Assembly: GCA_964610305.1 (NCBI GenBank)
Contig: CAZSVL010000006.1
Coordinates: 13,973-77,972 of the forward strand
From: an uncultured Gammaproteobacteria bacterium
Lineage (GTDB): Bacteria > Patescibacteriota > Patescibacteriia > Magasanikbacterales > JBBTXJ01
Direction: 5' to 3'
Length of the DNA: 64,000 nt
The number at the start of each line of letters is the position of its first letter. The first letter of the stretch is position 1. This document shows, piece by piece, positions 2,947-48,494 of this stretch. Below the pieces are notes generated by a model. It made no database searches and was not told the origin of the DNA. It saw nothing but the letters and a program-made list of their open reading frames with translations. A program made the translations under genes and the position numbers.

Positions 2947-2949
2947 TAC

Positions 2950-2978
2950 TTGACAAGCTATTCGCAATATGTTAGCTT
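2950..2978 (+). promoter_or_regulatory. Sigma70-type promoter of paralog A (TTGACA-N17-TAGCTT)
   Basis: Consensus -35. The same arrangement is duplicated at 4547-4575. Confidence 0.55.
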
Positions 2979-3114
2979 AAAAGAGCTCATCGGGACGCCA
3001 CGAGCATTGAAAATACTTGGTCAGTGACCATTGAAATCGGCGACAGGTTCCCACCTGCGCGCTATTGATCTTTAAAACAGGGACGCCTGAGAGTATTGAT
3101 TGTGAGAGGGAAAA
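2979..3114 (+). promoter_or_regulatory. Conserved 5' leader of paralog A with two GGGACGCC motifs (2992-2999, 3080-3087)
   Basis: Near-identical blocks shared with the 4576-4720 leader. Confidence 0.5.
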
Positions 3115-4515
3115 ATGCAAGAGACCTTTTGGTCAGATGCCAGTGATAAAGGGCTAACAGCAAAGGCGGTGATTTCACCAACGGGCGCTGTTATTGCCAA
3201 GAATTTTGGGTCCAGTGATCCCCTGAGAAATGGAGACATTGGCCTAGAGGTTAGGATTAAGCGAAAGAACGCCCCCGAGCTCTCGGCAGAGCAGAGAATG
3301 GCCGCGCAGGGAGTGGCAGAAGCCATGAGCGATAAGCTCAAGGGTCATTTGGGTCAGGAACGGCCGGCTCATAAATGGCCGCTTGGCGCGGTTGTGAGAG
3401 TTCGCATGGACAACTTTGGTGGCGTGGGCTTTATTGTAGCTCAGAGTGATACGCATTTAGCGCTGATGGATTTCAACGAGGATTGCTCCGCGCTACTGAG
3501 GACGGACTATCCGCTCTCTGCCATTGTCATTGAGCAGCTAGAGCTTCCAGCCAATGGAAAAGCCGGCTTGGCTCTTAGGCAATTGGAAGACCAGGTTGAA
3601 AGGCTTGGGCGGCTTGACTTAGACGAGTTTAAGGGCATTGCCACGCATTTTCGTGGCGATCCTGTTGCCGTTTGTCATGGCGCGCGGTTTGCCGATGGCT
3701 GGGATCAATTGTGTTTTCTCTTTGAGATGCTTAAGGGAGAGGATCCTGAGCATCGCGCCACCTTGATCAGCTTTGCTAAGCCTCATTTTGCGTATGACCT
3801 TTTAAGCAAATTTACTGTTCCAGTCCAAATGGCAGAGGTAGCATTGCTGGGTGGTACACAGGAGAATGAGTCACGTGCAACAGCTGCCATTAAGGTTTTG
3901 ACAGTGTTTCCATCCGATACGGTGATAGGCTCTTGCGGTAGCGCAGCTCTGTTTACCTATTGGAAAAAGATGGGCGAAGGGCGCAGGAATGTCATCTCTA
4001 CTCTCACGCGTAGCGAGAAGTTACACACGGCATATAAGGCTTCATTTTTTTGCTTTGATGTCGCTACCTGTCGCTCTATGCTGAATTCATGCCATGAAAT
4101 GGTTGCTGAAAAGGTTGCAGAAAATCTAGCTTACCTGCTTGACACCGGAATGTGTGCTGGCGAGGACATTAGCCTCAGTGAGCTAAGAGACATGCTGGGT
4201 TTTCTAGCCGATGATTTCGCCGGTGTTGCTAAGCATATAGAGTCTGTTCCTTTTTTGGAAACACTTGCTTCTGATTGCTATTCTGATTTTAAGCAAGCAC
4301 AAAGAGCCATTTCTGATAAGTGGCTACAGCTAACCGGGAATACTGTGCCAAAGAAAGATCACTTTCGTTGGCAGCACGATGAATCCGGCAAATGGTCTGA
4401 AGACGTGTATTGCTATGATTACAACGATCAGAAGGCTTTGGGGATGAGAACGCACTCTTTGGCTCTCACGGATGACGGCCTGCTTGTTCTGGCAAGCGTT
4501 CCTTTCAAAGATTAA
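3115..4515 (+). CDS. Hypothetical protein, paralog A (466 aa)
   Basis: N-terminus (FWxDxxxKGxxAKAVxSPxG...LREGDxGLExR) is clearly homologous to the adjacent ORF 4721..6211. Confidence 0.6.
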   Translation: MQETFWSDASDKGLTAKAVISPTGAVIAKNFGSSDPLRNGDIGLEVRIKRKNAPELSAEQRMAAQGVAEAMSDKLKGHLGQERPAHKWPLGAVVRVRMDNFGGVGFIVAQSDTHLALMDFNEDCSALLRTDYPLSAIVIEQLELPANGKAGLALRQLEDQVERLGRLDLDEFKGIATHFRGDPVAVCHGARFADGWDQLCFLFEMLKGEDPEHRATLISFAKPHFAYDLLSKFTVPVQMAEVALLGGTQENESRATAAIKVLTVFPSDTVIGSCGSAALFTYWKKMGEGRRNVISTLTRSEKLHTAYKASFFCFDVATCRSMLNSCHEMVAEKVAENLAYLLDTGMCAGEDISLSELRDMLGFLADDFAGVAKHIESVPFLETLASDCYSDFKQAQRAISDKWLQLTGNTVPKKDHFRWQHDESGKWSEDVYCYDYNDQKALGMRTHSLALTDDGLLVLASVPFKD

Positions 4516-12300: not shown

Positions 12301-12386
12301 CACCACCGGTCTCAGGACTGCTTCAGCGATTAGCTACCGGACTCTACGCTCTGATAACGCTACCGGCACGAGCACTAGGATTATAG
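6393..12386 (+). CDS. Giant secreted protein (1997 aa). Signal peptide, thrombospondin type 3-like Ca-binding repeats, long charged coiled-coil region, Kazal-like module, then a very large cysteine-rich repeat region.
   Basis: GGAGG RBS. N-terminal hydrophobic segment. DxDxDGxxDxxDNC repeats at roughly nt 6525-6740. CGTDGSTFTNAC Kazal motif near nt 9505-9615. Many CxYxxCxxGCxxDxxGCPxGC and CNxxGxCDxxExxxxCxxDC repeats from about nt 8750 to the stop. Confidence 0.75.
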   Translation: MIPLSESHSYWVCNKSLFKKAFFVASIMAAFLLMTVPVFAQEIADKDNDGIADGIDNCIDIANAQQIDADQDGTGDLCDIDDDNDRIADGEDNCPTTANPKQADTDGDGAGDLCDVNTDESAAQSAEALQDENVTLEDLGTIEARVLPDSPLHFFKRFGRGVQEALTFDPVRDAKLKLQHANQQLSETKQMIDQKGMANVAPAVVKSAVKKYQNKLADIKDVADALKAEKVDNPEVIDRLLNDVTDKQLKQQKVLDNIAAQALEVKRKAKEEGRDISDDVDGVLSGVKDVKQSAMEDFTATLATVEDSASNIGVRVTSVMDRQKGSEFKELKNLEILESMRRAAPADVKEAISIAKKNTVEKFEKNLRDLPAVVRADKFENYVKHATSDETKLVKLLDEIKKSSGIPADVLDILEEAKEIAVRRFEEKLSLVEDDVVQASLISGLSVEDDSDIDDLIVLEDFKNRMKVGEKQKELMDEMHNRSIDAFKRKFTDTESADQAELFRKLSQQMLDNPSPKTFKLMQTLEDEVRSDPSKRAFLDQLEDDMQRQYENQYRKEGDRFMDRVATLDPSDIAILQSLDFDSNFEDRLVKRSAEKYKKRMKNIVVPEEFDTFRERFFDIPDFVVQEIKKNDTDFEQAMQFKVRKMEETRAEREREIARASLDYEERELWHQDDRQRQREDDEFWRQLNNSDWEDFDTRKQLWDEKINDRYDTIDSRFDRQKELFEQKMALDPWCDEVCKQIQLQFLEQDLRHEKERLADDLIRERNRIEAEQVQHQQNDPLYGKCDSPESCEYYCSTNPGVPGCEWAIHVDKGQDCGPGAYWDYGRRQCESFDSQVYSCEPGYYWDYAVNGCTPDPYYVPPTNFRTCGYGMFWNEQFGHCESAVTVVTVPPSGVPGEPAPTPGTTYPSGFPPDTYPGDDSYCPYEYRWDSFYSECVPRDYQDCGPGYYYDFYDRRCHRDWQDCGPGFYWDAGIEQCVEEDTYIPEFGVCPPGFVSGPADGCIPEWRPEPINPGVYCPSGEIYNPTTDRCEVETQPEYCTQEYKPVCGTDGSTFTNACYAKQAGVGIKNEGECESTPYPPVVEQCSNTKYNIGDSYSCDYGVCPHGCNYGFNGCPVECSAAPTEYCGDGICQEYNGEIYSCEQDCGEIERPEQCASYCEQSCGYENGSYCMFDNYGCAQGCSPTCDGYDQWYDQELGRCINDKEYSKIHGCSEHEYYDTYYRVCRENYCPAGWQWDVDSGGCVSLDDPSCKSECTDRCSNNSWCMYADNGCAVGCSPECPENQYYDQKQSKCVSYYDGTDCKATDYNMGESSDCNYDTCSSGCEYSDSGCPTGCYTPPTTDKCTDNGYNVSGTAACDYNACSEGCTWDNNGCPKGCYEHTGGTCGDNRCDSGEESWCSTDCGGEQCDSTKYNDFSGSYQCSYSECPSGCNWDDRGCAVGCYDPDYQCPASDYSRGYNNRECNYNECSSGCNFDTNGCPTGCMTGDDMCKYMDGWSYDSISGGCVKDGVTCSQPTSCDSCRGHGNSDSWCNYDYDGCPMGCQSSTYGDCRNNSGESACWAQPGCSWYTENGSSFCEGNDYYGPPSACDYDGYCEGGESSSSCSDCSYDNGVCTGDNRSSCESVPDCYWSDDGHYCFYQSYTCNYDGICDANESGPECGDCSSSPGTSMCNNDGSCTFGETYENCAGDCPYTDGMCGNGNCDPGESYDNCSSDCQALSCNNNGFCDIWETNANCYQDCPPDGTLGTSCNNNGYCDFNESSSSCPADCTNATGGTCWGKAYDMCETSGCIWYENHYDGSHCDDYAHGNANVFLGCNYDGICGNDEDYGSCPADCGTGGIECNYNGVCDGYETPMLCPGECVVSGTDCNYNGICDPSETMASCSSDCYSNGGGSTACPDNGYNTGSGSTSCNYSTCASGCHYDGQGCPTACMELACPDIGFNIPGTMNCDYAACSEGCSFDGQGCPSGCFAPPPPPVSGLLQRLATGLYALITLPARALGL

Positions 12387-16541: not shown

Positions 16542-16584
16542 GTCATCCCGGAATTTTGTGAAGCAAAATATCCGGGATCTCAAG
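16542..16584 (+). repeat. Family 1 GTCATCCCGG...CCGGGATCTCAAG element, embedded in the yidC terminator loop
   Basis: Flanked by acaccccac / ttggggtgttttttt, which would form the terminator stem. Confidence 0.6.
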
Positions 16585-16602
16585 AATTGGGGTGTTTTTT
16601 GG

Positions 16603-18217: not shown

Positions 18218-18381
18218 GCTAGAGGCTATAGGCTGTAGGGTGCCACCATGTCATTCTGAACTTGATTCAGAATCTAGGGTAGAAATTGAGTACGTCTTAA
18301 TCTTCCTAACTGGATACTGAATCAAGCTGCGCATGACGCTAACAGGATTTACAGCATAAAGCCTACAGCCTACGGCATTCA
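18218..18381. repeat. Composite palindromic element, family 2 (GTCATTCTGAACTTGATTCAGAAT core with ctacagc-rich flanks)
   Basis: Homologous to elements at 23287-23448 and 35874-36032. Confidence 0.55.
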
Positions 18382-18388
18382 AAAATAC

Positions 18389-22095: not shown

Positions 22096-22104
22096 GGTTG
22101 CGCT

Positions 22105-22164
22105 GTCATCCCGGGCTTGCCTGTCCGGCGTAGCTTTAGCGTAGACGGAACCCGGGATCTCAAG
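22105..22164 (+). repeat. Family 1 element, 60-bp variant (identical to the reverse-oriented copy at 31994-32053)
   Basis: gtcatcccgggcttgcctgtccggcgtagctttagcgtagacggaacccgggatctcaag. Confidence 0.7.
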
Positions 22165-22235: not shown

Positions 22236-23276
22236 TCACCGGTCAGCAGCTTGAAGGGCTTCTACTATCGGGCCAAGATCCCCCGCCATAACACCCGGAA
22301 TATTGCTCCAGCTTTTTCCAATGCGGTGATCCGTGATTCTGTCCTGAGGGTAGTTGTAGGTGCGGATTTTCTCTGATCTATCCCCTGTCCCAATTTGGGC
22401 GGAACGCTCATCAGAGAGCTCTTTTGCTTCTTTTAATTCTTTTTCTTCTTGAATTCTGGCGCGCAGAAGTTCCATGGCTTTAAGTTTGTTTTGTAGCTGA
22501 GATCTTTCTTGTTGGCATGCTACGGCTATACCCGTTGGAATGTGCGTGATCCTAATTGCGGTTTCAACTTTGTTAACGTTCTGTCCTCCGGCGCCGCCCG
22601 AGTGAAATTTATCTATACGCAGGTCTTTATCTTCTATGACTAGCTCTGTGGCTTCAACTTCTGGCATAACGGCAACCGTGGCGGTGCTGGTATGAATCCT
22701 CCCTTGTTTTTCCGTGCCGGGAACACGCTGAACTCTGTGAACTCCTTGTTCAAATTTTAGTTCGCCGTATACCCCCTTACCCTCTACTTGGGCAATTACT
22801 TCTTTGTATCCGCCAAGTCCTGTTTCGTTTACCGATACTTTTTTAAAGCTCCATCCTTTTTCTTCTGCATAACGCTGATACATCTCATACAAATCTGCCG
22901 CAAAAAGACTTGCCTCGTCTCCACCAGCACCTGCACGTATTTCCAGCATTACATTTTTTTTGTCTCGCGGATCGCGCGGGCGCAGCAAATCAAGCAGCGC
23001 AGCCTCTAGTTTTATTTTTTTTGCGTTGAGCTCCTGCAGCTCAAAATCTGCCAAGTCTTTCATGCTCTGATCCTTCTCTGTCCCCGCCAAAAGCTCTGTC
23101 TCTTTTATTTGAGCATCAATACTCTCCAGCTGCACAATAATATCTACTTTTTCTTTTACATCAGAGTGTTCCATCCCCACCTCTTTTATTTTTTGAGGAT
23201 CAGAAAGAACCGCAGGGTCTTGAAGCTGCGTTTCTAGTTCCTTTAGTCGTTTTTTTAGTTGTTGTCGTTCGGACAT
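22236..23276 (-). CDS. prfA: Peptide chain release factor 1
   Basis: GGQ motif, RF1-type P(G)T tripeptide, coiled-coil N-domain. Confidence 0.85.
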
Positions 23277-23286
23277 ATTTTTGTCT

Positions 23287-23448
23287 GCTGTACGCTGTAT
23301 GCTTTATGCTGTACGCCCCGTTAGCGTGATCCTGAACCTGATTCAGGATCCATTAGGAGTATAAGACGTACTCTATTTTTTTCTGGATTCTGAAATAAAT
23401 TCAGAATGACAAGTGGAACCCTACAGCATAAAGCATACAGCCTACAGC
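23287..23448. repeat. Composite palindromic element, family 2, in the prfA 5' region
   Basis: Inverted flanks gctgtacgctgtatgctttatgctgtacg / ctacagcataaagcatacagcctacagc around a GTGATCCTGAACCTGATTCAGGATC...TTCAGAATGAC core. Confidence 0.6.
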
Positions 23449-23479
23449 ACGCTGCAGTAGTGCCAGCGATTGTTTTACC

Positions 23480-24678: not shown

Positions 24679-24766
24679 GCATCCTCCATTTGTTGTTACG
24701 GTAAGGATGGCATAATGCGACTATTTTGTCAAGAAAAAACCACACATGGATATGTGTGGTATATAT

Positions 24767-27326: not shown

Positions 27327-27367
27327 CACAACACTATAGCACAAAACGCGGAATTTGTCAAGGGGTG

Positions 27368-29370: not shown

Positions 29371-29423
29371 GAGTAAATAATAGCACACTTTGCATATTTT
29401 GTCAAGGGCTGGGCTAACATAAT

Positions 29424-29655: not shown

Positions 29656-29733
29656 GTATAGACTATAGCATAATTCTATACATTTGTCAAGAGCAGTGGC
29701 TCAATAATGGCTAAAATAAGCAAAAATTCAGCC

Positions 29734-31925: not shown

Positions 31926-31968
31926 GTCATCCCGGAATTTTGCGAAGCAAAATATCCGGGATCTCAAG
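31926..31968 (+). repeat. Family 1 element
   Basis: gtcatcccggaattttgcgaagcaaaatatccgggatctcaag. Confidence 0.65.
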
Positions 31969-31993
31969 AATAACGTATACAGCAAAGCGTTCT

Positions 31994-32053
31994 CTTGAGA
32001 TCCCGGGTTCCGTCTACGCTAAAGCTACGCCGGACAGGCAAGCCCGGGATGAC
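31994..32053 (-). repeat. Family 1 element, 60-bp variant in reverse orientation (identical to 22105-22164)
   Basis: Exact reverse complement match. Confidence 0.7.
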
Positions 32054-32062
32054 ACGAATCAC

Positions 32063-33588: not shown

Positions 33589-33617
33589 ATTATAGCATAT
33601 TTTAGTAGTTTTGTCAA
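33589..33617 (-). promoter_or_regulatory. Promoter TTGACA-N17-TATAAT (minus strand)
   Basis: Perfect consensus. Confidence 0.65.
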
Positions 33618-33703
33618 GGGCAAAACGGCTTTATTTGGCTTAGATTAGCCAAAATAATAAGTTTAAAAAAACCGCCTTTCCCCGTAGGTACTAAGCGGAT
33701 TTA

Positions 33704-34703: not shown

Positions 34704-34769
34704 TGCCCCTCCTTTGCTATAAAAATAGCACATAAAGACAAATTTGTCAAGATGTGCTATAGTTGCGCC

Positions 34770-35873: not shown

Positions 35874-36032
35874 GCTGTATGCTGTAGGCTGTATACCCTC
35901 TTAGTGTCATGCTGAACTTGATTCAGCATCCAGGCAGAAGTATAAGACGTACTCTATTTCTAACTAGATTCTGAAATAAATTCAGAATGACAATCTGCGA
36001 TCACTAATGCCTGAAGCCTAATGCCTACTGCC
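35874..36032. repeat. Composite palindromic element, family 2, immediately after prfB
   Basis: GTCATGCTGAACTTGATTCAGCAT...ATTCAGAATGAC core with ctgtatgctgtaggc flanks. Confidence 0.6.
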
Positions 36033-36040: not shown

Positions 36041-36634
36041 ATGAAAATAATTAAAGAAAAAGAGGAGTTGCAACAGGCCATTGAACATTTGCGCGATGGC
36101 GGTGTTTTAATATACCCAACAGAGAGCTCATACGGCATTGGCTGCAGGGCGGATGACGTAATTGCGGTGGGGAATGTGTTTTCTTTTAAAGAGAGGGCTG
36201 TAGATAAAACCGTTTTGATTTTAGTGCCAAGCGTAGAAGTTGCAAAAAGATTAGTGCAGTGGTCAGATAAGATTCAGGAATTGGTGGATAGACACTGGCC
36301 TGGCCAGCTCTCTATTGTGGCGCAAGCAACGCCGGAGGGAAGGCATTTGGCGCCGGGCGTGGTGGCAAAAGATGGTACTATTGCGCTGCGTATGTCGCCT
36401 CACCCAACCGCACAAGCGCTTGCTGAGGCTGTTGGTCCGCTTGTGTCTTCGTCGGCAAATAAAGGCAGTGAGCCTCCTTGCTATAGTATGGAGCAGATAC
36501 TTGATTGGCTCCAAGAGGATGATGAGATCATGATAATTGACGGCGGCGGTTTGCCTAAAAAGAAACCGTCCACAGTGGCAAAGGTGAACGGAAATGAAGT
36601 AAGGGTGCTAAGACAGGGCGCGGTACATTTGTGA
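36041..36634 (+). CDS. tsaC: L-threonylcarbamoyladenylate synthase TsaC/YrdC family
   Basis: YPTESSYGIGC and SSANKGSEP motifs. Confidence 0.75.
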   Translation: MKIIKEKEELQQAIEHLRDGGVLIYPTESSYGIGCRADDVIAVGNVFSFKERAVDKTVLILVPSVEVAKRLVQWSDKIQELVDRHWPGQLSIVAQATPEGRHLAPGVVAKDGTIALRMSPHPTAQALAEAVGPLVSSSANKGSEPPCYSMEQILDWLQEDDEIMIIDGGGLPKKKPSTVAKVNGNEVRVLRQGAVHL

Positions 36635-36642
36635 GACGTTCT

Positions 36643-36670
36643 TGACAAACGTTCGTAAATGCGCTATACT
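36643..36670 (+). promoter_or_regulatory. Promoter TTGACA-N16-TATACT driving a noncoding transcript
   Basis: Consensus hexamers. Confidence 0.55.
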
Positions 36671-36676
36671 GTTAGT

Positions 36677-36760
36677 AACACTAGGATGTTACTCCGTACC
36701 TTACGGATTGCATCACAACTGGGTACCAAAAAAGATCTCCTCTTGGGGAGCTCTTTTTTT
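36677..36760 (+). ncRNA. Candidate small RNA 1 (~85 nt) with two hairpins and short terminator
   Basis: Bounded by the promoter and ctcc tcttgg ggag plus T7. Confidence 0.35.
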
Positions 36761-36776
36761 ATGCTATACTTTTTTT

Positions 36777-36856
36777 GGACCCGAGGGCCCGTGAGGTATA
36801 CAGTAACCCCCTGGTGTTGGTACCCAGGTAAGCGGGTGCAAGTCCCGCCGGGTCCA
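36777..36856 (+). ncRNA. tRNA-like 80-nt element (7-bp acceptor-like stem, T-arm-like GCGGG-TGCAAGT-CCCGC)
   Basis: A second -10 (TGcTATACT, 36762-36770) puts the TSS at G36777. 5' GGACCCG pairs with 3' CGGGUCC before discriminator A. The D and anticodon regions are not canonical. A bidirectional terminator at 36858-36883 follows. Confidence 0.4.
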
Positions 36857-36857
36857 T

Positions 36858-36883
36858 AAAAAACGCCTGTCAAGGCGTTTTTT
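36858..36883. terminator. Bidirectional terminator (aaaaaacgcctgtcaaggcgtttttt)
   Basis: Perfect hairpin flanked by an A-run and a T-run. Confidence 0.7.
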
Positions 36884-37823
36884 ATTTGAGTATTCTTTTT
36901 TTGTACCACTCTATTTCTGCAGCAAATCCGTCTATGTGGGCGGTTTTTGGTTCGTATCCTAGTATTCTGCGGGCCTTATCTATGTTTGCATGCGTTACTT
37001 TTTGATCTCCAGGCCGCGGGGGCATGTGTTTAAAGCGTGTTTTTTTGCCAATGAGGCTTTCTACCATTTCTATTGCCTCTTTGGTGCTCATTTGTTTGTC
37101 TGAGCCAATGTTGAAAATTTCGCCGGGCATTTTATCAATATTATCAAGCGCAGCAATAAAACCGTCTAGAGCGTCATGTACATACGTAAAACTGCGCAGA
37201 TGCTGCAAGGATCCTTCGTAGAGCGGCACCTGCCCATCCGTTAGAAGAGCTCCAATAAGACGGGGGTATAGTTTTTCAGGACGCTCGCGAGGTCCAAAAA
37301 CAGAAAATAAACGTAGAGAACAGGCTGGCAGATTTCCGTTTCTGTGGTAGGCAAGGGCAAGCTGTTCTGCTGCAAGTTTGGTTACGCCATAATATGATAC
37401 CGGCTTGGCGGCTACGTTTTCTTCATCGGTTGCATGGTGACCATAGCAAGAAGATGTTGCGGTGTTTACAAAAAGTTTGAGGGTTGGGACTTTTTTTGCG
37501 GCCTCTAGTAGCTTGTGAATTGCTAGCAGATTATTGCGCGTGTAAGCCGCCAGTGTTACATGAGCCACAATGCCGGGCTGTCCTGCTAAATGATAAATTA
37601 CCTCTACGCCATTGAGTATGGGATCAAGCGGCGTGGTAGCAAGATCAGCTTCAATAAAGGTAACGCCCGCTTTTTTAATATCTGCCACGTTCATCTCTTT
37701 TAGATGACGCGCGTAGTAATCAGTAAAGCAATCAATTCCAATAACGTCATGGCCCATTTTGGCCAGACGCTCGCATAAATGTGATCCTACAAAGCCGGCT
37801 GCGCCGGTAACGAGTATTTTCAT
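36882..37823 (-). CDS. NAD-dependent epimerase/dehydratase (UDP-sugar 4-epimerase-like)
   Basis: GAAGFVGSHL Rossmann motif and YxxxK. Minus-strand promoter TTGACT-N18-TACAAT about 10 nt upstream of the ATG. Confidence 0.7.
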   Translation of the reverse strand: MKILVTGAAGFVGSHLCERLAKMGHDVIGIDCFTDYYARHLKEMNVADIKKAGVTFIEADLATTPLDPILNGVEVIYHLAGQPGIVAHVTLAAYTRNNLLAIHKLLEAAKKVPTLKLFVNTATSSCYGHHATDEENVAAKPVSYYGVTKLAAEQLALAYHRNGNLPACSLRLFSVFGPRERPEKLYPRLIGALLTDGQVPLYEGSLQHLRSFTYVHDALDGFIAALDNIDKMPGEIFNIGSDKQMSTKEAIEMVESLIGKKTRFKHMPPRPGDQKVTHANIDKARRILGYEPKTAHIDGFAAEIEWYKKRILK

Positions 37824-40301: not shown

Positions 40302-43300
40302 ATGCAAAAAAGGCACAAGCCACCCGTGTTTAAACGGATAATGCTGGGAATGCTCAGCGGTTTTATGGTTGTGCAGATTGGTTTTGCAGCACTCATGGTT
40401 CCGCGTGTTGCGCATGCGCAGTGGTATGTTTTTGATCCTTTTTCTGTTATCTCTGCTGCCATTGATCAGATTTCAAACGCGGCAAGAGTAGTTGATGAGG
40501 CGGTAGGTGGGGCTCTTTCTACTGCCGTACTTGGCGCTTCTCTTCATTTGGCGCAGTCATTGGCGTATGATTCTGCTCAGTGGATTGCAGATTCAGCTTG
40601 GGGTAAAGAGCCGGCATTTTTTGCCAGCAATATGGGGGATTACCTACTGGATCATGCTACAGACGGAGCCGTAGACGCACTGAACGAAATGTCAAAAGAG
40701 TGGATTGGACTGGATTTGTGTAAGCCAAAGGATCCTACGTTTAATTTGCTCATTCAGCTTGGTTTTAGAAAACATCATGATCCTAAAGTTGATTGTAGTT
40801 TTGATCAGATGAGTGATGCGTGGGATAAAAAGTGGGAGCAATTAAAAGACAAATACAATGGCTGCGCTGGCAACACCTTTGGCTCTGCCAGTGTAGATGA
40901 AAAAGCCACGGGAAGGTCTGCAAAAAAAGGCGGCAACTTGGACGAGTGTATGACCGCCATGGCTAAGACCATGTTTAAGCCAGATAATACAGAGATTGGT
41001 CTTGCCATTAATGCACGGCTAGCGATTACAAAAAAAATAAGAGCAAAAGGACAAATTGCTTTGGAAGAGAGAAAAGAAGGACAAGGGTTTAAATCCAAAA
41101 AAGGTGGCGCAGCTGGTGCCTATATTTCTAAGCCGGCTCCTCTTGTTAAAGAAGAAGGTAAAGCATCTACAAAAGTAAAACAGGAGGACAGAACCTTCCA
41201 GATGATCTCTGGTCAGCTTGGGTCTGGGTATAAGGCCGGTTTGGCTGCTATTCCTACGCTTTTTTTGAGTCAGTTGCTCAGCGCAAATGGAGAAAACTTT
41301 TTTGAATGGTTAAAGAAGCCAGGAGATCAAAAAAAGAGCGATCCGTTTGATAGATTGGCTGATATAGATGGCTTAAGTAATCCTAATTCTGGCGATGGCG
41401 GTTTTGGGTTGTCACCCCAAGCAGAGAGAGCATTTGAGACCATTGCCATAGGAGACCCTTCAACTATTGATATTATTAGCCAGTTTACAGCATGTCCCTC
41501 AGAGGATGGCACGGTTAACCGAGGACCGCATGATTGTGTGATGGATGCTAAATTTGCACAAGCAGTAAGGTTAGCTGATTCTGGCAGGGCAATTACCATA
41601 GCTGAGGCCATTGACAGAACAATGCTACAGCCGGGGTGGAGACTGATTCCACCATCAAACGTGGGCGCTAACTCAGAGGTTTCTTGCAGGAATGAAGCCT
41701 ATTGTTTTTCAAACATAGCAAAATTAAGGCAAGCGAGAATTCTGCCATTGGGTTTTGAAATAGCAGCCTCAGAATCGCCGGAGGGTAGGCACTGGACATT
41801 AAGAGAAGTGGTGGATGGTTTTTTGAGTTGTAATGGAGATGGGCGGAGGGATAACGACCATCCGTTCTGTCATTTAATTGATCCAAATTGGATTTTGAAA
41901 GCGCCACCAGCAAGATGTAACGCTACTGTTCCCGGGCCCATGCTAGAGGCATCTGACACGCTGGTGAGAAAAAATGTATGCGCTGATACCGTAACTTGTC
42001 TACAGGATGATGGTCGCGGAGCGTGCGAGAGCCCGTGGGGGTACTGTCTAAAGGAAAAAAATATTTGGAGAACAGGCGCAGATAGTTGCGCGGCACAATA
42101 TTCTAGTTGTACTACTTACACAGGTAGCAGTGCTGGCGCTCAGAATAAAGTAAGCTATCTTTCAAAAACTATAGATTTTGGCCAGTGTACCGCAGAAGAC
42201 GTGGGATGCCGTGGGTATCTGACGCATCAACTGCTGCAGGATGACGGCACTTATGGTTGGCCTTCTGTTCTAGATGAGCTGGCCGGACGTCCGATGCATT
42301 TAACGGCAAAGGCTCAAGAATGTACAGAGCCCGGGTGCACCTTGTTTACTAAAAAGGATGGCACAGAAGTGCACATCAAAAAGGCGCCTCATTATTTAGG
42401 GTGTTATGATCAGGTTGATCCAGACAGCCCAGCCAGACAAGAGGGGGATTGGCCTCAGAAAATTGCAGACTTGGCGTTGTTGAATCCTGCGGCTGAGTGC
42501 GGTCAGTACGCAGCTGTTTGTGCTGCAGAAGAAGAGGGTTGCACCAGCTACGCGCCAGAAAACGGAGATCCAACCGTGCCAGCCATTGTGGCAGAATCTG
42601 ATTACTGTTCTGATCAGTGTGTGGGTTACGATTCTTACAAACAATTAGAGACAGATTTTGACACCGCAGAATTCCCTATTCACTTTATTCCTAGCACCGC
42701 GCAACAATGTAACGGCGCGTTTGTTGGGTGTGATCAGTTTGTAAATGTAAATAGTGAGCAGTTTGAGCATTATAGTTTTGTAAAACAATGCGAGAGGCCA
42801 GAAGAAGATGATGCCAACTCTGGCGTATTTTACGCGTGGGAAGGATCAGATATTCAGGGGTACCAACTGCGGTCTTACGTTTTGAAGACCTCACTTGAGA
42901 TACCGGGAGGTGGGCAGTGGCTTATGGAGCCATATCCTATTCCTGCTTACGCAGCGGCTTATGATGAAGATCTAATGATTTCTTATCATGATGTTTGCAA
43001 TCAAGAGCTTTATGAGGCTCGTTTGGCAGATCAGGATTGTAGGGAGCTTTTTGACAGAGAGGGGCGCAAATCATACAGACTTTTGGCTCATACCATTACC
43101 GTCTCAGACCAGTGCCATCTTGTCAGAAAGACAAGTGCAGATATTATTGAATTGGGAAACGTTGTCCGTAGGCAAAATGACTGTGAGCAAGATGCAAAAG
43201 GTGTCTGGGAAGATGGGGCATGCAACGTCTGTAAAGGCGGCGGTGAAAACAGAAACGGCACCTGCATGTATTGGGTATTGCCATCAGAAGCCATAAGCTG

Positions 43301-46300
43301 CCCCGCAGAAGCCGCCGGATGCAGAAAATACACCGGAAATGCTGGCGGTAACGTAGAAGAAATTGTTCGCCACACGTTTGAAGATGTGTTGCCAGAAGAT
43401 TTGCAGGCATGGGATCAAGGAGAGGTTTCTGCTGAATCTGTCACCGTTGGCGGACACTCTTGGAAAGCTGTAAACAGAACAAATGTTGTAATACAGGCAG
43501 AAAAAGATTCAAGTTACACGTTTTCTTTCTGGGCAAAAGGTGAACCGGGTTTTGTAACATTAGAGTTTGGCGGGGTAATTGCGGATAATGTAGGCGGAGA
43601 GCCAACCGTGCAAATCGTGAATGATTGGCAACAATTTACACTTGGGCCAATTTACTTTAAAGAGGTCACAGATGTGCTCTCTAGAGCTACTGTTACTTTC
43701 AACATGAATGGCATAAGAGATGCAAATACGTTTTATGTGGATAATGTCATTATAAAAAAGACCATCGCGCACACCACCTTGGTAAAAGACAGCTGGTCCA
43801 CTCCCCTTGCGTGTGATAATAATCCGCAAGATAATTTGCCAGGAGAGGCGCTTGGTTGCAAGGCATATAGAAGCAGTGCTGGTGCCCGCGTGGCGCTTAA
43901 ATCTTTCTCTAATTTGTGTAGAGCAGAGGCAGTAGGATGCGAGAGATTGGTAAATACGCACAACTCTTCTCAATCAGAAGGAAAAACCGTTGGCATGGAG
44001 TGTGGCATGTTCATTGAGGGTCTTGTGGAAGATAGAATACACCCAGACAGCAGAGAGTGTTTTGCAGATATTGATTTAGATGGGGATGGTAGCATTGATA
44101 ATCAAGAGGCGGTGTGTACTGTTCCTGTTGGAGAAGACACATGCTTCTTTGAGATGCCTCGCGCTATAGATTATGACAACAATGATAAAGATATTTACCG
44201 CTCCGGAAGTTCTGTATTTGTGGTACCTGCAGACAGTCTGGCTTACTTGGTGAATAAAGCGGAACATCGCTGCAGTCCAGATCAGATTGGTTGTATGGCA
44301 TTGGGAGAGGTAACGGGAGAGCGCAGCGAGGATAACAGACGCGTCATAAACACCGTCAATAAAATTGTTGTTCCAGATCAGTTTGACAGCATAATGTGTA
44401 ACGCCTCTCTTGTTGGTTGTGAGGCTTATAATGTGAAAAGTTTGGCAGATCAGAGTAACAGAACGGTTTATTTTAAAGATCCGGTAGCGGCTGGAAGGGG
44501 TGTGTGCGAATACAAAAAAGATGTAGACGCCACACTAAGAAATGGCGATGTGGTAACCGGTGCCAGTGGTTGGTTTGTGGCAGGAAGTGATCCTCTCAGG
44601 CCATGTGAAGAAAGGCTACGCAAAATAAATGACTTTCAGTTGCCGAGCCAAGGAGATGCTTTATATGAGTTTGCTCTTGCTCAAGTAGGCGTCTGTCCTG
44701 CTACCGCAAATTCTTGTACAGAGATGGTTGATCCAGCGGATACATCTCAAACGCATCCAGACGGTAAGCCATATTTTGTTTTGGATAACGGAAAGTTGGA
44801 TAAGACAAGTTGTAACAATAAAGCAAGTCTGAAAGAAGGGTGTGTGTTGTTTGATGACAGATCAGTGCCAAACAAGAAGTATCAGGTGGGACAGACCTAT
44901 GATTTAAGTGCTGCTAATGATAATGCGCTTGTAGAACCTGTGTTTATTGGGGCAATTCCTCCTTTTACGTGCAGGGATGATGAGTGTGTAGAAATTCTAG
45001 ATACTCACGAGTCCGTATCTCACCCTGGATTTATCGGTGAGCTTGTGTACCAGGCGCCCCAAGGATCATATTCGTTGATAGATGACGGGCTTTTTGGTGT
45101 CCGTACTTTTACGGTTCTAGACTCATGTAATGCTGGTTTTGCAATGCATACAACTCCAGGCAATACCTATACCGACAATAAGAGGGTGATACACAATGTT
45201 GAAGAAGATCTTTCATTTAGAATTTGTATACCAGAAGATTTGGTTAATACCGATGTAGCAAATACTATTGTTAAGGTGAGTAGAGATAGGGCGTGTTCTG
45301 AGTGGTTGTATTGCCAGTCCCATATGACAGTTACGGACCCTAGTACAAATCAAAAGAAAAATGTTTGTGGATCTGTAGGTGTTTGTGATTCATTTGGGGA
45401 TGTCATAGATGGGATTGCTACCTGTAAGAATGTTGTTGCTAATCCAGGATTTTCAGGAGAAAAATTAACCAAGGCGGCTTACGCAGAGCGTTCGGTTGGT
45501 TGGTATGACGAGGAGTTTACCGGTCATTCGCTCTACAATAAGTATCAAATTTATGACTATACGTTTGTTAAAAGTGATGTGGAGGGTGTGGGCAAAGGAA
45601 GGACTTATTTGGTGAGTATGCCATATGATAGGGAGGCTGCGGCTCTTGCTTGTGAAAATGATGGCGGAATTGATGATGACGGAAGCAATTGTAGGGTTAA
45701 TCGTTCACCGGGTACTTGCATAGCAGGTTTGTGCGTACAAAAGCTTGGCGGCGGGCCAATTGTTTTGGCTGATGCGGGAGAGCAAGCACTGGCGTGCAGA
45801 GGATATGCACACTCGCAAGCGCCATTTACTTTTTCTGGTAAGGATATTACATGGGTTGAGACTGCGGCTAATGGAGACCAAGATGATCAGCAAAAAGTAG
45901 ACGCTACTGCAATAATGCAGTCATTAAATATAAGCGGCTTTGATAACGCAGCCATATGCCAGAAAGGCGATGAATGCGTATGTTCTTACAAAAAAGTGGA
46001 GTATGGAGATGGAAGAGAACAACGTTATTTTGATGTTAATCGGCAAGGAATTCCAAAAGGCGTTTGTGGCGGTGGCTTTACCGCAGGAGTAAACTCCAAA
46101 TCTAAAAAGGGGAGAGCGTGCGATACCCCGGTAGATTGCAGGGATGACAGATATGGTGATAATGACTCCCCTGAAGCTTTAAGAAATAGACGGGATGGCG
46201 ACTGTTTATATAAAACCAATGTGGCAACCTTTAATGGCTGGAGCGGCTTTTGCATAGATCAAGATCAGAGTGTTGAAACGCCGGGCAGTGGTTCAGAAGG

Positions 46301-48494
46301 TAAAGCATGCCAGACGTGGATGCCTTTAGATGTGGTGCCAGGATCAAATAGCATATTTAATCAGTATGTAGAGGCGGGTTATCAGGTTGAAGATCCGGTT
46401 GAAACAACAAGGTATTGCTTGGAAGCAGAAGGCAACGCGCGGAATGCCGGAAATGGTTCTTCTTATAGATACGCGAACGAATTGGATATGTCATGGAGTG
46501 GATACACTAGATTTAGCTACACTGAACGTGATCTTTTTTCCAGATCGCAACGTAAAGATGGGGATTTAAGATTTGAAGAGATTGATTACATAGAGTTTGA
46601 TTGGAAAACTTCTGACAACATGGTTGTTAGGGCTGGTAAGACGCGTCTTGTTAATGATGGGCAAGAAACGGAGTCTGAGGCATACGGCATGTTGCCAAGC
46701 AAACCACGCATCTTTGCTCATTCTAGGCAACGATGTAAGGAGGCGGCATGGATGTCTGGTATAACTACAGGTATTAACAGTAATGAAGACAGGTATACAT
46801 GTGTGACAGCCGATGAGTTTGCAGAAGTACAACCATCTGCACGCGTTAGAGATATGCTTGATCCCGGTGACGCACTGGTTACAATGTTTAGAAGAGATGG
46901 CGCAAGAATACGCGGCTTGGTGCTCATGAGTGATGGTCAGACAGATAGTGACGCGGCATGTTTTCAATATGGCATGCAGGCAGATGTTGATTGCAATGTT
47001 TTTGTAGAGGCTGCAAGAAACACGCAACCCGATCCAGATAGTGGCTGCAACGCACGGCTTGGCTATATTGGAAGTTTTTGTGATGACAAAGATAGTGGTG
47101 ATAGCGGAGACGGGGCTTGGATAGTAATTAATTTTGACGATCAGCACAGATTGGAATCTGAGGTTGTAACCACTTTGGTAAACAGAAATGAGAATGGTGG
47201 AGCAAGCGACGGTTTTGTGGGCGCTACAGCAATTGGATTTGATAGTATAACCGTGGCAAGAAGAGAAGTGTGTAAAACAATTGTTGACATTGCAAATGAA
47301 GAAGAGACGGTGGTGCAAACCAATAGATTATGGAAAGCACAACCTTTGGCAGGCAAAATTGAAGGGGATTACCGCGTGGTTCTTTCTCCTGGCTATAATG
47401 CAAGATGGAATGATTCTAATAAGCCTTTTGCCGGCCTACAAAGTGGCGCAAGCTTAAGTACGGATACTGAGTATTTGCGAGGAACTTACGACGAGGGCTA
47501 TGATTCTGGTGCGGCTAGTTATTCTTGCGCCCGTGGACGATGTGGTCCTTCAGAATCTAACGCTCAGCGTCATACAAAAACGACCCTGCAGGCAGGAATA
47601 CAGGTAATGTCTGAGCTTTTTGGTAAGGTATTTAACGCTTGGTCGCTAAATTCAAATAAGATAGGGTATGATGAATTACTTGACGGCGGGCATTGTGGCG
47701 CAGCGGCGTGCTATGATCAGACTAATGCTAGAGCAAACGCAAAGCCACCTGCGATTGCAAGTGTGAGTGATGATTGCACAGAAGTTTCATGTGGTCTAGG
47801 TAGGGTAGGAAGAATGACAGCAAATGGTAAAGATAGTGGTTATATTTTTGGCAACGGTGTGGCAACGGTTCAGCTGCAATTCTATGCGTGGGCAGATACT
47901 GATAGAATGCCAATTAAAAATGTTTCCGTTTATTGGGGGACAGAGGAAATATTAAAGTCTGGCGGTAATGAAGGCAAGTACAAGAATAGAAAGCCATACT
48001 GTCAGGAAGAAGAAAATACTGGTATAACAACGTGCGCTGGTAATATTGAAGAAACGGCTGGTATAAACATCACCTGCTCAACTCCAGAGGAGTGTTCTGA
48101 TAACGGCGCTGGTGAATGCAGGGGTAGTAGATTAAGTTTTGGTAATACGCCAGACGCGTGTGACACTGGTTTTTATCAGTATCAAGCTACCTATGTCTTT
48201 AGTGAAGATGATCCTGCGTGTCAGAATACTTTTGGCAGTGGCAGTGTTCCCTCTGGTGTAGACGTGGAGAGGGTACGCAGACTTGGATTGACTCCGGGCG
48301 ATAAGTATTGTGCCTTTAAACCACGGGCCATTGTTCAGGATAATTGGGGTTGGTGTAATACGGTTGACAACGCCGGAGCATGGGGAGACTTAAGTGGGGA
48401 TGCAGACGCCGCGAATAGGTGTGATAGACCATCTGATAATGATAATGTTGGAACACCTTATACTGATTGGATAATTGTAGCCGAATCGAAATAG
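40302..48494 (+). CDS. Giant secreted/surface protein (2730 aa), cysteine-containing, no recognisable catalytic domain
   Basis: Single uninterrupted ORF. N-terminal signal/TM segment ending AHAQW. Confidence 0.75.
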   Translation: MQKRHKPPVFKRIMLGMLSGFMVVQIGFAALMVPRVAHAQWYVFDPFSVISAAIDQISNAARVVDEAVGGALSTAVLGASLHLAQSLAYDSAQWIADSAWGKEPAFFASNMGDYLLDHATDGAVDALNEMSKEWIGLDLCKPKDPTFNLLIQLGFRKHHDPKVDCSFDQMSDAWDKKWEQLKDKYNGCAGNTFGSASVDEKATGRSAKKGGNLDECMTAMAKTMFKPDNTEIGLAINARLAITKKIRAKGQIALEERKEGQGFKSKKGGAAGAYISKPAPLVKEEGKASTKVKQEDRTFQMISGQLGSGYKAGLAAIPTLFLSQLLSANGENFFEWLKKPGDQKKSDPFDRLADIDGLSNPNSGDGGFGLSPQAERAFETIAIGDPSTIDIISQFTACPSEDGTVNRGPHDCVMDAKFAQAVRLADSGRAITIAEAIDRTMLQPGWRLIPPSNVGANSEVSCRNEAYCFSNIAKLRQARILPLGFEIAASESPEGRHWTLREVVDGFLSCNGDGRRDNDHPFCHLIDPNWILKAPPARCNATVPGPMLEASDTLVRKNVCADTVTCLQDDGRGACESPWGYCLKEKNIWRTGADSCAAQYSSCTTYTGSSAGAQNKVSYLSKTIDFGQCTAEDVGCRGYLTHQLLQDDGTYGWPSVLDELAGRPMHLTAKAQECTEPGCTLFTKKDGTEVHIKKAPHYLGCYDQVDPDSPARQEGDWPQKIADLALLNPAAECGQYAAVCAAEEEGCTSYAPENGDPTVPAIVAESDYCSDQCVGYDSYKQLETDFDTAEFPIHFIPSTAQQCNGAFVGCDQFVNVNSEQFEHYSFVKQCERPEEDDANSGVFYAWEGSDIQGYQLRSYVLKTSLEIPGGGQWLMEPYPIPAYAAAYDEDLMISYHDVCNQELYEARLADQDCRELFDREGRKSYRLLAHTITVSDQCHLVRKTSADIIELGNVVRRQNDCEQDAKGVWEDGACNVCKGGGENRNGTCMYWVLPSEAISCPAEAAGCRKYTGNAGGNVEEIVRHTFEDVLPEDLQAWDQGEVSAESVTVGGHSWKAVNRTNVVIQAEKDSSYTFSFWAKGEPGFVTLEFGGVIADNVGGEPTVQIVNDWQQFTLGPIYFKEVTDVLSRATVTFNMNGIRDANTFYVDNVIIKKTIAHTTLVKDSWSTPLACDNNPQDNLPGEALGCKAYRSSAGARVALKSFSNLCRAEAVGCERLVNTHNSSQSEGKTVGMECGMFIEGLVEDRIHPDSRECFADIDLDGDGSIDNQEAVCTVPVGEDTCFFEMPRAIDYDNNDKDIYRSGSSVFVVPADSLAYLVNKAEHRCSPDQIGCMALGEVTGERSEDNRRVINTVNKIVVPDQFDSIMCNASLVGCEAYNVKSLADQSNRTVYFKDPVAAGRGVCEYKKDVDATLRNGDVVTGASGWFVAGSDPLRPCEERLRKINDFQLPSQGDALYEFALAQVGVCPATANSCTEMVDPADTSQTHPDGKPYFVLDNGKLDKTSCNNKASLKEGCVLFDDRSVPNKKYQVGQTYDLSAANDNALVEPVFIGAIPPFTCRDDECVEILDTHESVSHPGFIGELVYQAPQGSYSLIDDGLFGVRTFTVLDSCNAGFAMHTTPGNTYTDNKRVIHNVEEDLSFRICIPEDLVNTDVANTIVKVSRDRACSEWLYCQSHMTVTDPSTNQKKNVCGSVGVCDSFGDVIDGIATCKNVVANPGFSGEKLTKAAYAERSVGWYDEEFTGHSLYNKYQIYDYTFVKSDVEGVGKGRTYLVSMPYDREAAALACENDGGIDDDGSNCRVNRSPGTCIAGLCVQKLGGGPIVLADAGEQALACRGYAHSQAPFTFSGKDITWVETAANGDQDDQQKVDATAIMQSLNISGFDNAAICQKGDECVCSYKKVEYGDGREQRYFDVNRQGIPKGVCGGGFTAGVNSKSKKGRACDTPVDCRDDRYGDNDSPEALRNRRDGDCLYKTNVATFNGWSGFCIDQDQSVETPGSGSEGKACQTWMPLDVVPGSNSIFNQYVEAGYQVEDPVETTRYCLEAEGNARNAGNGSSYRYANELDMSWSGYTRFSYTERDLFSRSQRKDGDLRFEEIDYIEFDWKTSDNMVVRAGKTRLVNDGQETESEAYGMLPSKPRIFAHSRQRCKEAAWMSGITTGINSNEDRYTCVTADEFAEVQPSARVRDMLDPGDALVTMFRRDGARIRGLVLMSDGQTDSDAACFQYGMQADVDCNVFVEAARNTQPDPDSGCNARLGYIGSFCDDKDSGDSGDGAWIVINFDDQHRLESEVVTTLVNRNENGGASDGFVGATAIGFDSITVARREVCKTIVDIANEEETVVQTNRLWKAQPLAGKIEGDYRVVLSPGYNARWNDSNKPFAGLQSGASLSTDTEYLRGTYDEGYDSGAASYSCARGRCGPSESNAQRHTKTTLQAGIQVMSELFGKVFNAWSLNSNKIGYDELLDGGHCGAAACYDQTNARANAKPPAIASVSDDCTEVSCGLGRVGRMTANGKDSGYIFGNGVATVQLQFYAWADTDRMPIKNVSVYWGTEEILKSGGNEGKYKNRKPYCQEEENTGITTCAGNIEETAGINITCSTPEECSDNGAGECRGSRLSFGNTPDACDTGFYQYQATYVFSEDDPACQNTFGSGSVPSGVDVERVRRLGLTPGDKYCAFKPRAIVQDNWGWCNTVDNAGAWGDLSGDADAANRCDRPSDNDNVGTPYTDWIIVAESK

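Follow-up and report, generated by a model that had tools for sequence, protein, structure and literature searches.

A tRNA-Ala-like RNA and a cognate antisense small RNA encoded side by side in Patescibacteria

We describe a locus of two small RNA genes, encoding a tRNA-Ala-like RNA and an antisense small RNA (sRNA), in a stretch of 64,000 nucleotides (nt) from a Patescibacteriota genome (contig CAZSVL010000006.1, positions 13,973 to 77,972 of the forward strand). This whole stretch is called the window, and positions are counted from its first letter. The locus comprises the two genes with their signals, a cloverleaf, an alanine identity that is invariant among relatives and a complementarity that is specific to each cognate pair of RNAs. 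The anticodon stem of the tRNA mimic is a variable address, which a private sRNA matches along with the conserved 5′ half of the mimic. We propose, with a slight lean towards this reading over all others, that the antisense sRNA unfolds and neutralises an alanine-accepting tRNA mimic and that the two RNA genes form a self-contained module. The key to the locus is a complementarity between the two RNAs flagged in an initial annotation, which had correctly placed ctgggtacc at 36719-36727; its counterpart ggtacccag lies at 36819-36827 and not at 36816-36824.

The tRNA-like RNA forms a complete 72-nt cloverleaf, with the 7-base-pair (bp) acceptor stem and the D, anticodon and T arms of a tRNA, when the acceptor 5′ strand is set 8 nt downstream of the sequence GGACCCG. 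The acceptor stem then pairs GGGCCCG (36785-36791) with CGGGUCC (36849-36855), includes a G3·U70 wobble and is followed by the discriminator A73 (36856). The D arm (36794-36809) consists of a 3-bp stem plus an A·C, with the loop AUACAGUA devoid of GG; the 5-bp anticodon stem CCUGG/CCAGG (36810-14/36824-28) closes the 9-nt loop UGUUGGUAC; the variable region has 3 nt, and the T arm (36832-36848) reads GCGGG/UGCAAGU/CCCGC, UGCAAGU being the loop. The initial annotation had recognised this T arm and the 5-bp stem with its 9-nt loop, together with the pairing of GGACCCG with CGGGUCC followed by A, although CGGGUCC occupies 36849-36855 and the A 36856, instead of 36850-36856 for the former. It took these strands as the ends of an 80-nt RNA with a non-canonical middle. 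This middle results from the register chosen, since a 72-nt cloverleaf forms with GGGCCCG as the acceptor 5′ strand, and folding is not confined to the 80-nt register: GGACCCG, a conserved leader, and the true acceptor 5′ strand compete for pairing with the 3′ strand. The suggestion of a tRNA-like RNA rather than an ordinary tRNA is thus borne out, while that of a fragment does not fit a complete cloverleaf that is conserved and covarying.

Scanning one genome per prokaryotic species with the pattern GGTGCAAGTCC-N5-GGTCCA yielded more than 119 loci, which fall into four groups: 3′ ends of transfer-messenger RNA (tmRNA) of Christensenellales, genuine tRNA-Ala of DPANN archaea and Planctomycetes, an alphaproteobacterial tRNA-like element, and Patescibacteria loci. 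The latter, about 50 in number, match the window chassis nearly base for base and belong to Parcubacteria/Paceibacterota, Yanofsky-, Uhr- and Falkowbacteria and Saccharibacteria. The relatives collected, 44 from genomes and 39 from metagenomes (about 82 distinct sequences), share a family chassis: G3·U70 with A73, no GG in the D loop, UGCAAGU as the T loop, and an anticodon arm made of a hypervariable stem and a 9-nt loop. We aligned the 44 genome-derived relatives (alignment A1) and built a covariance model, R1, from them. Base pairs of the cloverleaf are satisfied in 95.9% of the cells of A1, against 84.1% in column shuffles, and double-sided compensatory cells number 129 against 36.7; sliding the register by 1-3 columns lowers the pairing to 29-56%. 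R1 gives the window element 88.8 bits, the only strong match in 64 kb (the next best scores 12.7 bits). Over all fetched loci its scores are bimodal, with 70-95 bits for the family and at most 62 for real tRNAs.

The anticodon arm is the variable part of the family: 74 sequences display 53 distinct anticodon stems. Despite this variability the loop keeps to the pattern Y-N-U-U-R-N-Y-A-C, with about 90% of the loops fitting YUNR, the U-turn motif of antisense-RNA recognition loops and of anticodon loops. The triplets at the anticodon position are GAC (32), AGC (14), GGU (13) and others. Saccharibacteria members have 7-nt loops (anticodons GCG, ACG and GUC) and encode CCA. One member, at L084:1967-2038 on the minus strand, combines canonical D and T loops and a 7-nt loop with anticodon AUC, G3·U70 and A73, and carries the whole sRNA, leader and terminator architecture (sRNA at about 2095-2150); it is a candidate for a bona fide missense tRNA inserting alanine at the aspartate codon GAU.

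G3·U70 is present in all 44 genome-derived relatives. As U70 was fixed in the first pattern scan, the metagenome scan was run with a T-arm-only pattern, and in this sample, not selected on the acceptor, both G3·U70 and A73 were found in 39 of 39 members. Pairs 4:69, 6:67 and 7:66 of the same sample vary with compensation or wobbles (L172, for example, has U4-A69). G3·U70 is therefore retained although an A-U pair at this position would be more stable. The window element displays G3·U70 with A73, the identity of alanyl-tRNA synthetase (AlaRS) substrates, together with G1-C72 and G2-C71. Mukai et al. 2017 (PMC5389517) give G3:U70 as the main AlaRS determinant and report that in E. coli tRNAs with G3:U70 and non-alanine anticodons become alanylated. 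The mimic is presumably alanylated as well. A genuine tRNA-Ala(UGC) of the candidate phyla radiation (CPR), at L059:6440-6512, has an identical acceptor (GGGCCAG/CUGGUCC-A-C) and a near-identical T stem, from which we conclude, at the level of sequence, that the family derives from tRNA-Ala.

Nearly every locus repeats the order seen in the window, that is, a promoter P1 (cTTGACAaa-17-TGcTATAcT), an sRNA of about 80 nt, a terminator, a TATAAT-like −10 element, a leader and the tRNA-like gene. In the alignment of the 44 relatives, the best-conserved upstream columns are cTTGACAaa and TGcTATAcT of P1, and a TAtAAT-like −10 is found 6-8 nt 5′ of the leader. Pairs of the hairpin of T1, the sRNA terminator, covary in relatives, and its loop motif cTTGnAAA is conserved. 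In the window, the loop and 3′ stem of T1 contain TTGGGG (36743-36748), the −35 element of the next promoter, P2. The 5′ end of the sRNA was set from the −10 element and its 3′ end from the U run. P1, the hairpin-rich stretch terminating in a run of 7 T, the extended −10 of P2 and GGACCCG are all present where the initial annotation had read them (Table 1).

Three segments of the sRNA complement the neighbouring tRNA-like gene. In the anticodon arm, segment A complements the 5′ stem strand and the first part of the loop, and segment B the remaining loop and the 3′ stem strand; the central part (…CGUAYACUACGGGYY…) is complementary to the acceptor 5′ strand and the D arm. Examples of such pairings are CACUAGGUGUCAA versus UUGACACCUAGUG at L008 and ACAACGGAAUG versus CAUUCCGUUGU at L016. 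In the window, 36671-36706 is the colinear reverse complement of 36789-36824 (26 of 36 positions identical, plus wobbles). The 9-nt complementarity of ctgggtacc extends to 11 of the 12 nt of segment B, ACUGGGUACCAA (36718-36729), with UUGGUACCCAGG (36817-36828), and recurs with a different sequence in nearly every relative, where the equivalent of segment B matches the different anticodon arm of its own locus.

This complementarity is specific to the cognate pair. The antisense score of sRNAs with their own anticodon arm averages 21.0, against 11.9±2.7 with non-cognate arms, and the cognate pair ranks first by this score in 32 of 47 cases. RNAduplex gave −37.1 kcal/mol for cognate and −27.1 kcal/mol for non-cognate pairs. 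Cofolding of the two window RNAs yields −66.4 kcal/mol, compared with −58.8 kcal/mol for both RNAs folded apart. Transition mismatches in the alignments of the sRNA with the tRNA-like RNA comprise 98 G·U and 27 A·C, a bias expected for selected RNA-RNA pairing of these strands and not for DNA repeats. Judging from the sequences, the hypervariable anticodon stems are thus tracked by the sRNA. The window sRNA has a folding z-score of −4.2, and RNAalifold, applied to 34 sRNAs, predicted a stem between segments A and B and the terminator, both covarying, and left the loop-complementary stretch single-stranded. A search of the sRNA against Rfam gave nothing above noise, and it belongs to no Rfam 15 family.

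The pairing is in trans, between two RNAs, because other lineages show the reversed gene order with separate promoters. In at least 10 loci the tRNA-like gene comes first and the antisense gene follows, with a TTGACA promoter of its own (L041, L048, L072, L042, L053, the Saccharibacteria loci L031, L074, L089 and L125, and L051 from a Bacillota metagenome-assembled genome), and the antisense RNA is colinear with nt 1-42 of the tRNA-like gene or patchwise complementary to it. The tRNA-like RNA also pairs with itself through its 5′ leader. The minimum-energy fold of 36777-36857 uses a helix between the leader and the acceptor 3′ strand, and 96% of relatives have a helix of ≥7 bp between leader and 3′ end (as a rule GUGGAYC with GGUCCAC), compared with 3.3% when leaders are shuffled. 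Outward extensions of these helices covary (GCCUGUGGA/UCCACAGGC, GGGCGUGG/CCACGCCC). Given a −10 element 6-8 nt upstream, the primary transcript probably starts with the leader. In the modelled structures the leader helix precludes acceptor pairs 1-3:70-72; it would thereby hide G3·U70 and open the acceptor 5′ strand to the sRNA.

We suggest the following course for the interaction, as the most economical one. The single-stranded 3′ tail of the sRNA, GGGUACCAA, would contact the U-turn-type anticodon loop (UUGGUAC) of the mimic, and pairing would then spread by strand exchange over both strands of the anticodon stem, the D arm and the acceptor 5′ strand. The resulting heteroduplex of about 30 bp would block the cloverleaf, the freed acceptor 3′ strand being held by the 5′ leader. 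In this way the sRNA would keep the mimic unfolded, unprocessed and uncharged, and probably mark it for RNase III. We infer that both RNAs are made and paired in vivo.

The genomic behaviour of the module bears on its role. An all-against-all BLASTP comparison of the open reading frames (ORFs) within ±3.5 kb of 47 loci revealed no conserved protein partner; the only recurrent 'ORFs' near the loci are read-throughs of the conserved RNA itself, in which single-nucleotide indels (variants of 72-74 nt) disrupt any reading frame. There is no small toxin ORF of the type I toxin-antitoxin kind, no tRNA-dependent transferase gene (Fem-type or other) within ±3.5 kb of the loci and no integrase or transposase linked to the module. 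Tandem copies have different and mutually orthogonal stems (276 bp apart in L158, 706 bp apart in L135); further copies lie a few kb apart in L084, and L081 contains a decayed copy. A pattern scan of 2.9 million viral contigs found no CPR-type copy; it matched two contigs sharing one identical sequence, an alphaproteobacterial-type tRNA-like element. In the closest TsaC relative found, L003 (79% identity), a single terminator lies between tsaC and the epimerase gene, and a clean gap of 222 bp coincides exactly with the position of the module; this terminator is orthologous to the terminator T2 of the window. As the module is not conserved at this site, synteny with TsaC homologues provided this empty-site comparison and no relatives.

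The module resembles toxin-antitoxin or addiction systems in being patchily distributed, present in multiple, orthogonal copies, subject to decay and devoid of protein partners, and the sRNA, like a type VIII antitoxin, is complementary to its partner RNA in a cognate-specific manner. We tentatively consider an RNA-only toxin-antitoxin or addiction/defence-type pair, with the sRNA as antidote, although for this role the odds are clearly below even. The freed, stable mimic might be harmful by missense insertion of alanine or by titration of tRNA-handling enzymes; an alanine-charged missense tRNA as the harmful partner is suggested by the canonical-looking members with Asp or Arg anticodons and by the precedent for alanylation. 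Slightly more doubtful still is the broader proposal of a widespread RNA-only toxin-antitoxin (or abortive-infection) system of Patescibacteria, in which an alanine-charged missense or decoy tRNA would be paired with a private antisense sRNA that unzips it by way of its anticodon loop and the hypervariable anticodon stems would act as orthogonality address codes.

Several points weigh against these proposals. In most members the anticodon loop has 9 nt, G18G19 are missing and UGC replaces TΨC in the T loop, which makes missense decoding on the ribosome doubtful for the window copy; in staphylococci, the UGC triplet of the T loop accompanies weak binding to EF-Tu and the ribosome (PMC7826273). 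About 22% of the members carry alanine-type triplets (AGC or GGC) and would therefore not mistranslate. Toxicity of the mimic is something we purely infer. The sampling patterns all fix the T loop, which limits the diversity sampled, and the similarity of two nearby inverted segments could come partly from gene conversion and not from selection for pairing.

Serious alternatives thus remain: the RNA may donate alanine outside the ribosome, or act as a decoy for enzymes that bind tRNA. As a donor, it would supply a tRNA-dependent transferase (Fem/MurM-type peptidoglycan bridging, Ala-lipid synthesis or similar) in the form of a non-proteogenic Ala-tRNA, and the sRNA would be a dosage regulator. 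The invariance of the AlaRS identity while the anticodon is free speaks for this, as do the UGC T-loop triplet and the GG-less D loop, which resemble those of the staphylococcal non-proteogenic tRNAGly (PMC7826273), and the retention of GG and TTC by canonical CPR tRNAs at the same loci. However, no transferase gene is linked to the module; multiple orthogonal copies, decayed copies and absence from a close relative would be odd for cell-wall housekeeping; a hypervariable stem with a private antisense RNA is not needed by a donor, and the UGC T loop also occurs in genuine tRNA-Ala of DPANN archaea and Planctomycetes. We regard the specific form of a transferase-feeding donor as unlikely.

The roles of the two RNAs might also be reversed, the sRNA being the active regulator of other mRNAs and the tRNA-like RNA its sponge or decoy. 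The complementarity is identical whichever RNA is the effector, and tRNA-derived sponges are known in enterobacteria. Yet the variable segments of the sRNA follow only the stem of the neighbouring gene, over 53 different stems, and a shared cellular target would keep them constant. Such a sponge also leaves the invariant G3·U70 and A73 and the leader helix unexplained, and we consider this alternative rather less probable than the alanine donor.

It is more improbable again that the locus produces one cis-acting structured RNA of about 180-215 nt, in which the P1 transcript would read through T1 and fold back as a switch. The initial annotation had raised a single RNA of about 180 nt, and its parts are indeed adjacent and on the same strand in the window and in most Parcubacteria-type loci, with favourable cofolding. 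This idea is contradicted by T1, whose conserved, covarying hairpin and U run are followed by a −10 element at fixed distance and the leader, and by the loci with the antisense gene downstream behind its own promoter.

We also examined the window RNA as an ordinary tRNA. The Rfam tRNA family RF00005 aligns end to end with 36785-36856 at 30.1 bits (gathering score 29, E = 2.4e-4), in a permissive scan of 501 nt (36500-37000); the gathering scan of the whole window gave no match. ARAGORN predicted neither a tRNA nor a tmRNA in the window. The scans proposed in the initial annotation as a refutation of a tRNA-like RNA hence gave a mixed answer, ARAGORN being negative and Rfam just above its threshold in the local scan only. 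The 5-bp stem closes a 9-nt loop in place of a 7-nt anticodon loop with U33 and purine 37, and the Rfam register puts a U·C mismatch at 31·39 and a U at position 37. The D loop AUACAGUA lacks G18G19 and the T loop UGCAAGU lacks T54-Ψ55-C56. The triplet reads UGG or GGU depending on the register, and not the NGC of tRNA-Ala. At the same loci or contigs, normal CPR tRNAs differ in their acceptors and have GG and TTC in the D and T loops, respectively. The Rfam score, and the calls that ARAGORN makes on about half of the family members, would suit a decoding tRNA of unusual form (Pro-UGG or Thr-GGU) or a tRNA pseudogene in decay, complementary to upstream sequence by chance. These calls conflict with one another (Ser-UGA or Ser-CGA, a type II tRNA, without a long variable arm, also Leu, Thr and Pro), and the locus is missing in the close relative. 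The 9-nt loop, the alanine acceptor combined with non-alanine triplets, the covariation of the cloverleaf and that of the cognate sRNA exclude an ordinary isoacceptor or neutral decay, so that we give this explanation very little credence.

Least probable of all is a DNA-level element (inverted repeats for site-specific recombination or inversion, an integrase attachment (att) site, or a miniature inverted-repeat transposable element, MITE): presence/absence polymorphism and multiple copies would suit it, and tRNA-like sequences are classic att sites, but the repeats contain gaps, do not follow an inverted order and match imperfectly (72% in the window), DNA pairing would not produce the strand-specific 98:27 G·U bias, integrase and transposase genes are not linked, and no CPR-type copy was found in the 2.9 million viral contigs, and we dismissed an invertible or att element on repeat order, imperfection and G·U bias.

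Table 1. Features of the locus, with positions in the window
Feature	Position	Strand	Description
Non-coding gap, ~250 nt	between tsaC and the convergent epimerase gene		houses the two small RNA genes
tsaC	36041-36634		upstream flank of the gap; Pfam Sua5_yciO_yrdC
NAD-dependent epimerase gene	36882-37823	minus	convergent, downstream flank
Promoter P1 of the antisense sRNA	36642-36670	+	TTGACA, 17 nt, TATACT; 11/12 consensus positions
Antisense sRNA, ~85 nt	36677-36760	+	predicted from signals
sRNA segment B ACUGGGUACCAA	36718-36729	+	complements anticodon loop and 3′ stem strand
Terminator T1 of the sRNA	36728-36760	+	A tract, hairpin, 7 U; 7-T run at 36754-36760
Extended −10 TGcTATACT of promoter P2 (tRNA-like RNA)	36762-36770	+	read in the sequence
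5′ leader GGACCCGA	36777-36784	+	GGACCCG (36777-36783) complements acceptor 3′ strand CGGGUCC
tRNA-Ala-like RNA, 72 nt	36785-36856	+	Rfam tRNA alignment, family model R1, cloverleaf covariation
Terminator T2	36858-36883	bidirectional	A6, CGCCU-GUCA-AGGCG, U6

T2 is shared with the convergent epimerase gene, which ends at 36882. Elsewhere in the window, the repeated sequence ATAGCAYA…TTTGTCAAG (24707-24733, 27336-27362, 29377-29409, 29665-29691, 33589-33621 and 34725-34751) is the reverse complement of CTTGACAAA-N-TRTGCTAT, that is, the strong promoter consensus of P1 on the minus strand, and near-consensus sigma-70 promoters appear to be in use genome-wide. MITE-like palindromic intergenic repeats, TGTCATKCTGAACTTGATTCAGMATC… and TACAGCATAAAGCMTACAGCCTAC…, are found at 18249-18387, 23276-23449 and 35905-36032, one copy lying between a release-factor gene and tsaC, just upstream of the RNA locus. 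The arms of a 61-nt perfect inverted repeat (22104-22164 and 31994-32054) are 9.8 kb apart, and a 46-nt direct repeat with 98% identity (16542-16587 and 31926-31971) adjoins one of them. Two ORFs are very large (6393-12386, 1997 aa; 40302-48494, 2730 aa); the first has internal Cys/Gly-rich repeats (families D1 and D8), and the second follows a small ORF that contains a bacterial TSP3 repeat.

The scans also retrieved RNAs outside the family. The T-arm motif AAGCGGGTGCAAGTCCCGC occurs in the core of many cobalamin riboswitches, where it is followed by …GCCGCGCAACTGTAA (e.g. L127, L132, L133, L144), and about half of the metagenome T-arm matches are such riboswitches. A cobalamin riboswitch was dismissed for the window locus, which has GGGUGCAAGUCCC in common with them but no B12 box and no Rfam match. 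The T arm GGGUGCAAGUCCC with a …CUGGUCCACCA acceptor is present in tmRNA 3′ ends of Christensenella and other Clostridia (L019, L036, L038, L046, L052, L056, L066, L067, L077, L095, L100, L104 and others). Genuine tRNA-Ala(CGC) genes with a UGC T loop were found in DPANN and other archaea (L024:5615-5688, L054, L071, L117) and in Planctomycetes (L007, L069); the archaeal D loop AGACAGCCA also lacks GG, so that the A18/G55-type variant occurs in real decoders too. No antisense partner was seen for these tRNA-Ala genes of DPANN archaea and Planctomycetes.

Another tRNA-like element, of about 68 nt (GGGCCUAG…GAGGGUGCAAGUCCCUCUAGGUCCACC(A)), is present in the viral contigs (L005:5150-5217, L006:7176-7243) and in Sphingomonas and other Alphaproteobacteria (L009, L039, L040, L044, L075, L085, L093, L116, L122). 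It has a G·U at the equivalent of 3:70, often an encoded CCA, and a single middle hairpin. ARAGORN made no call in L005, L006, L009 and L040, Rfam gave no match for the viral copies L005 and L006, and no antisense partner was seen in L009 or L040. On the Planctomycetota contig L029, at least 15 closely spaced R1 matches lie on one strand at about 100-4400, consistent with a large tRNA gene array. At L062:1907-2542, a permuted 'tmRNA*' called by ARAGORN overlaps a family module, with the predicted tag AVRDITMALWPEGMPA. The usual tmRNA tag ends in ...AA, an end that this one lacks; the call is therefore likely spurious and provoked by an acceptor and T arm of the alanine type.

The family can be compared with several known RNAs. 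With bacterial tRNA-Ala it shares the acceptor GGGCCNG/CNGGUCC with G3·U70 and A73, nearly the same T stem, the 7/5 cloverleaf, U8, A14, A21, G53-C61, C56 and A58. It differs by its D loop AUAYAGUA without G18G19, UGC for TTC in the T loop, the 9-nt anticodon loop with a triplet that is mostly not NGC, the hypervariable anticodon stem, the self-complementary 5′ leader and the private antisense sRNA. Like tmRNA it has a G3·U70 alanine acceptor, and its T arm GGGUGCAAGUCCC is identical to that of Christensenellales tmRNA. A tmRNA was nevertheless rejected: the window element is 72 nt long, with complete D and anticodon arms in a full cloverleaf, no mRNA-like domain and no tag ORF, and neither ARAGORN nor Rfam reported a tmRNA. 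As in T-box leaders, an RNA element directly 5′ of a terminator complements a tRNA anticodon loop. Unlike in T-boxes, however, the complementarity spans 12-36 nt and would unfold the tRNA; there is no regulated downstream ORF, no Stem I platform and no T-box sequence, and Rfam gave no T-box match even at E ≤ 10.

Staphylococcal non-proteogenic tRNAGly have an altered D loop. They are paralogues of a normal isoacceptor that keep the synthetase identity and have TGC (or TGT) for TTC in the T loop (NP1-3, PMC7826273), and the family likewise combines a UGC T loop with a retained synthetase identity, as in the definition of non-proteogenic tRNAs given there. The staphylococcal RNAs differ in their normal anticodon UCC, their housekeeping role in pentaglycine bridges and the absence of an antisense partner, and no Fem-type gene is linked to the family module. 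The allo-tRNAs and other natural G3:U70 tRNAs with non-alanine anticodons (Mukai et al. 2017, PMC5389517) also combine alanine identity with Arg-, Leu- and similar anticodons and a patchy accessory distribution, and some of them are located near toxin-antitoxin genes. The acceptor/T branches of allo-tRNAs are 8/4 or 9/3 and their variable arm is long, whereas the family has 7/5 in 44 of 44 members and a 3-nt variable region. The cognate antisense sRNA is a feature of the family, and the consulted passages of that article mention none for allo-tRNAs.

The closest parallels to the proposed mechanism lie in antisense control. CopA/CopT, RNAI/RNAII and the type I toxin-antitoxin system hok/sok are antisense pairs with U-turn recognition loops, and SdsR/RyeA and CreT/CreA are RNA-RNA 'type VIII' toxin-antitoxin pairs. 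The module resembles them in its small, unstable-type RNA with its own strong promoter, in pairing at a YUNR loop followed by an extended duplex, in a variable stem-loop that sets specificity among orthogonal paralogues, and in its compact, self-contained form. Unlike in the antisense-control pairs, the target is a tRNA mimic and not an mRNA or a replication primer, and the antisense RNA is trans-encoded and does not overlap its target; the module also has no toxin ORF and no known link to Cas or Hfq.

Patescibacteria (CPR) are tiny cells whose genomes measure about 1 Mb and in which very few regulatory RNAs are known. If our model is correct, they hold several copies of an RNA-gene pair that annotation misses or labels as odd tRNAs, and the pair offers a natural four-way covariation between two stem strands and two strands of a partner RNA. 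The elements of this family should be left out of CPR tRNA counts and of inferences on codon reassignment. The module raises the question of whether alanine-accepting tRNAs with non-alanine anticodons are deliberately kept, and how they are made harmless, as well as that of RNA-only addiction or defence modules in ultra-small bacteria. Our search of the full-text literature returned no description of tRNA-like RNAs in Patescibacteria/CPR or of antisense partners of tRNAs. The ingredients, i.e. tRNA mimicry, G3·U70 identity and antisense control through U-turn loops, are known, and the module fails at least one defining test of each family considered. To our knowledge, the combination of a tRNA mimic with a dedicated antisense sRNA is new and, if the model holds, this would be the first known tRNA-shaped RNA with a trans-antisense RNA of its own.

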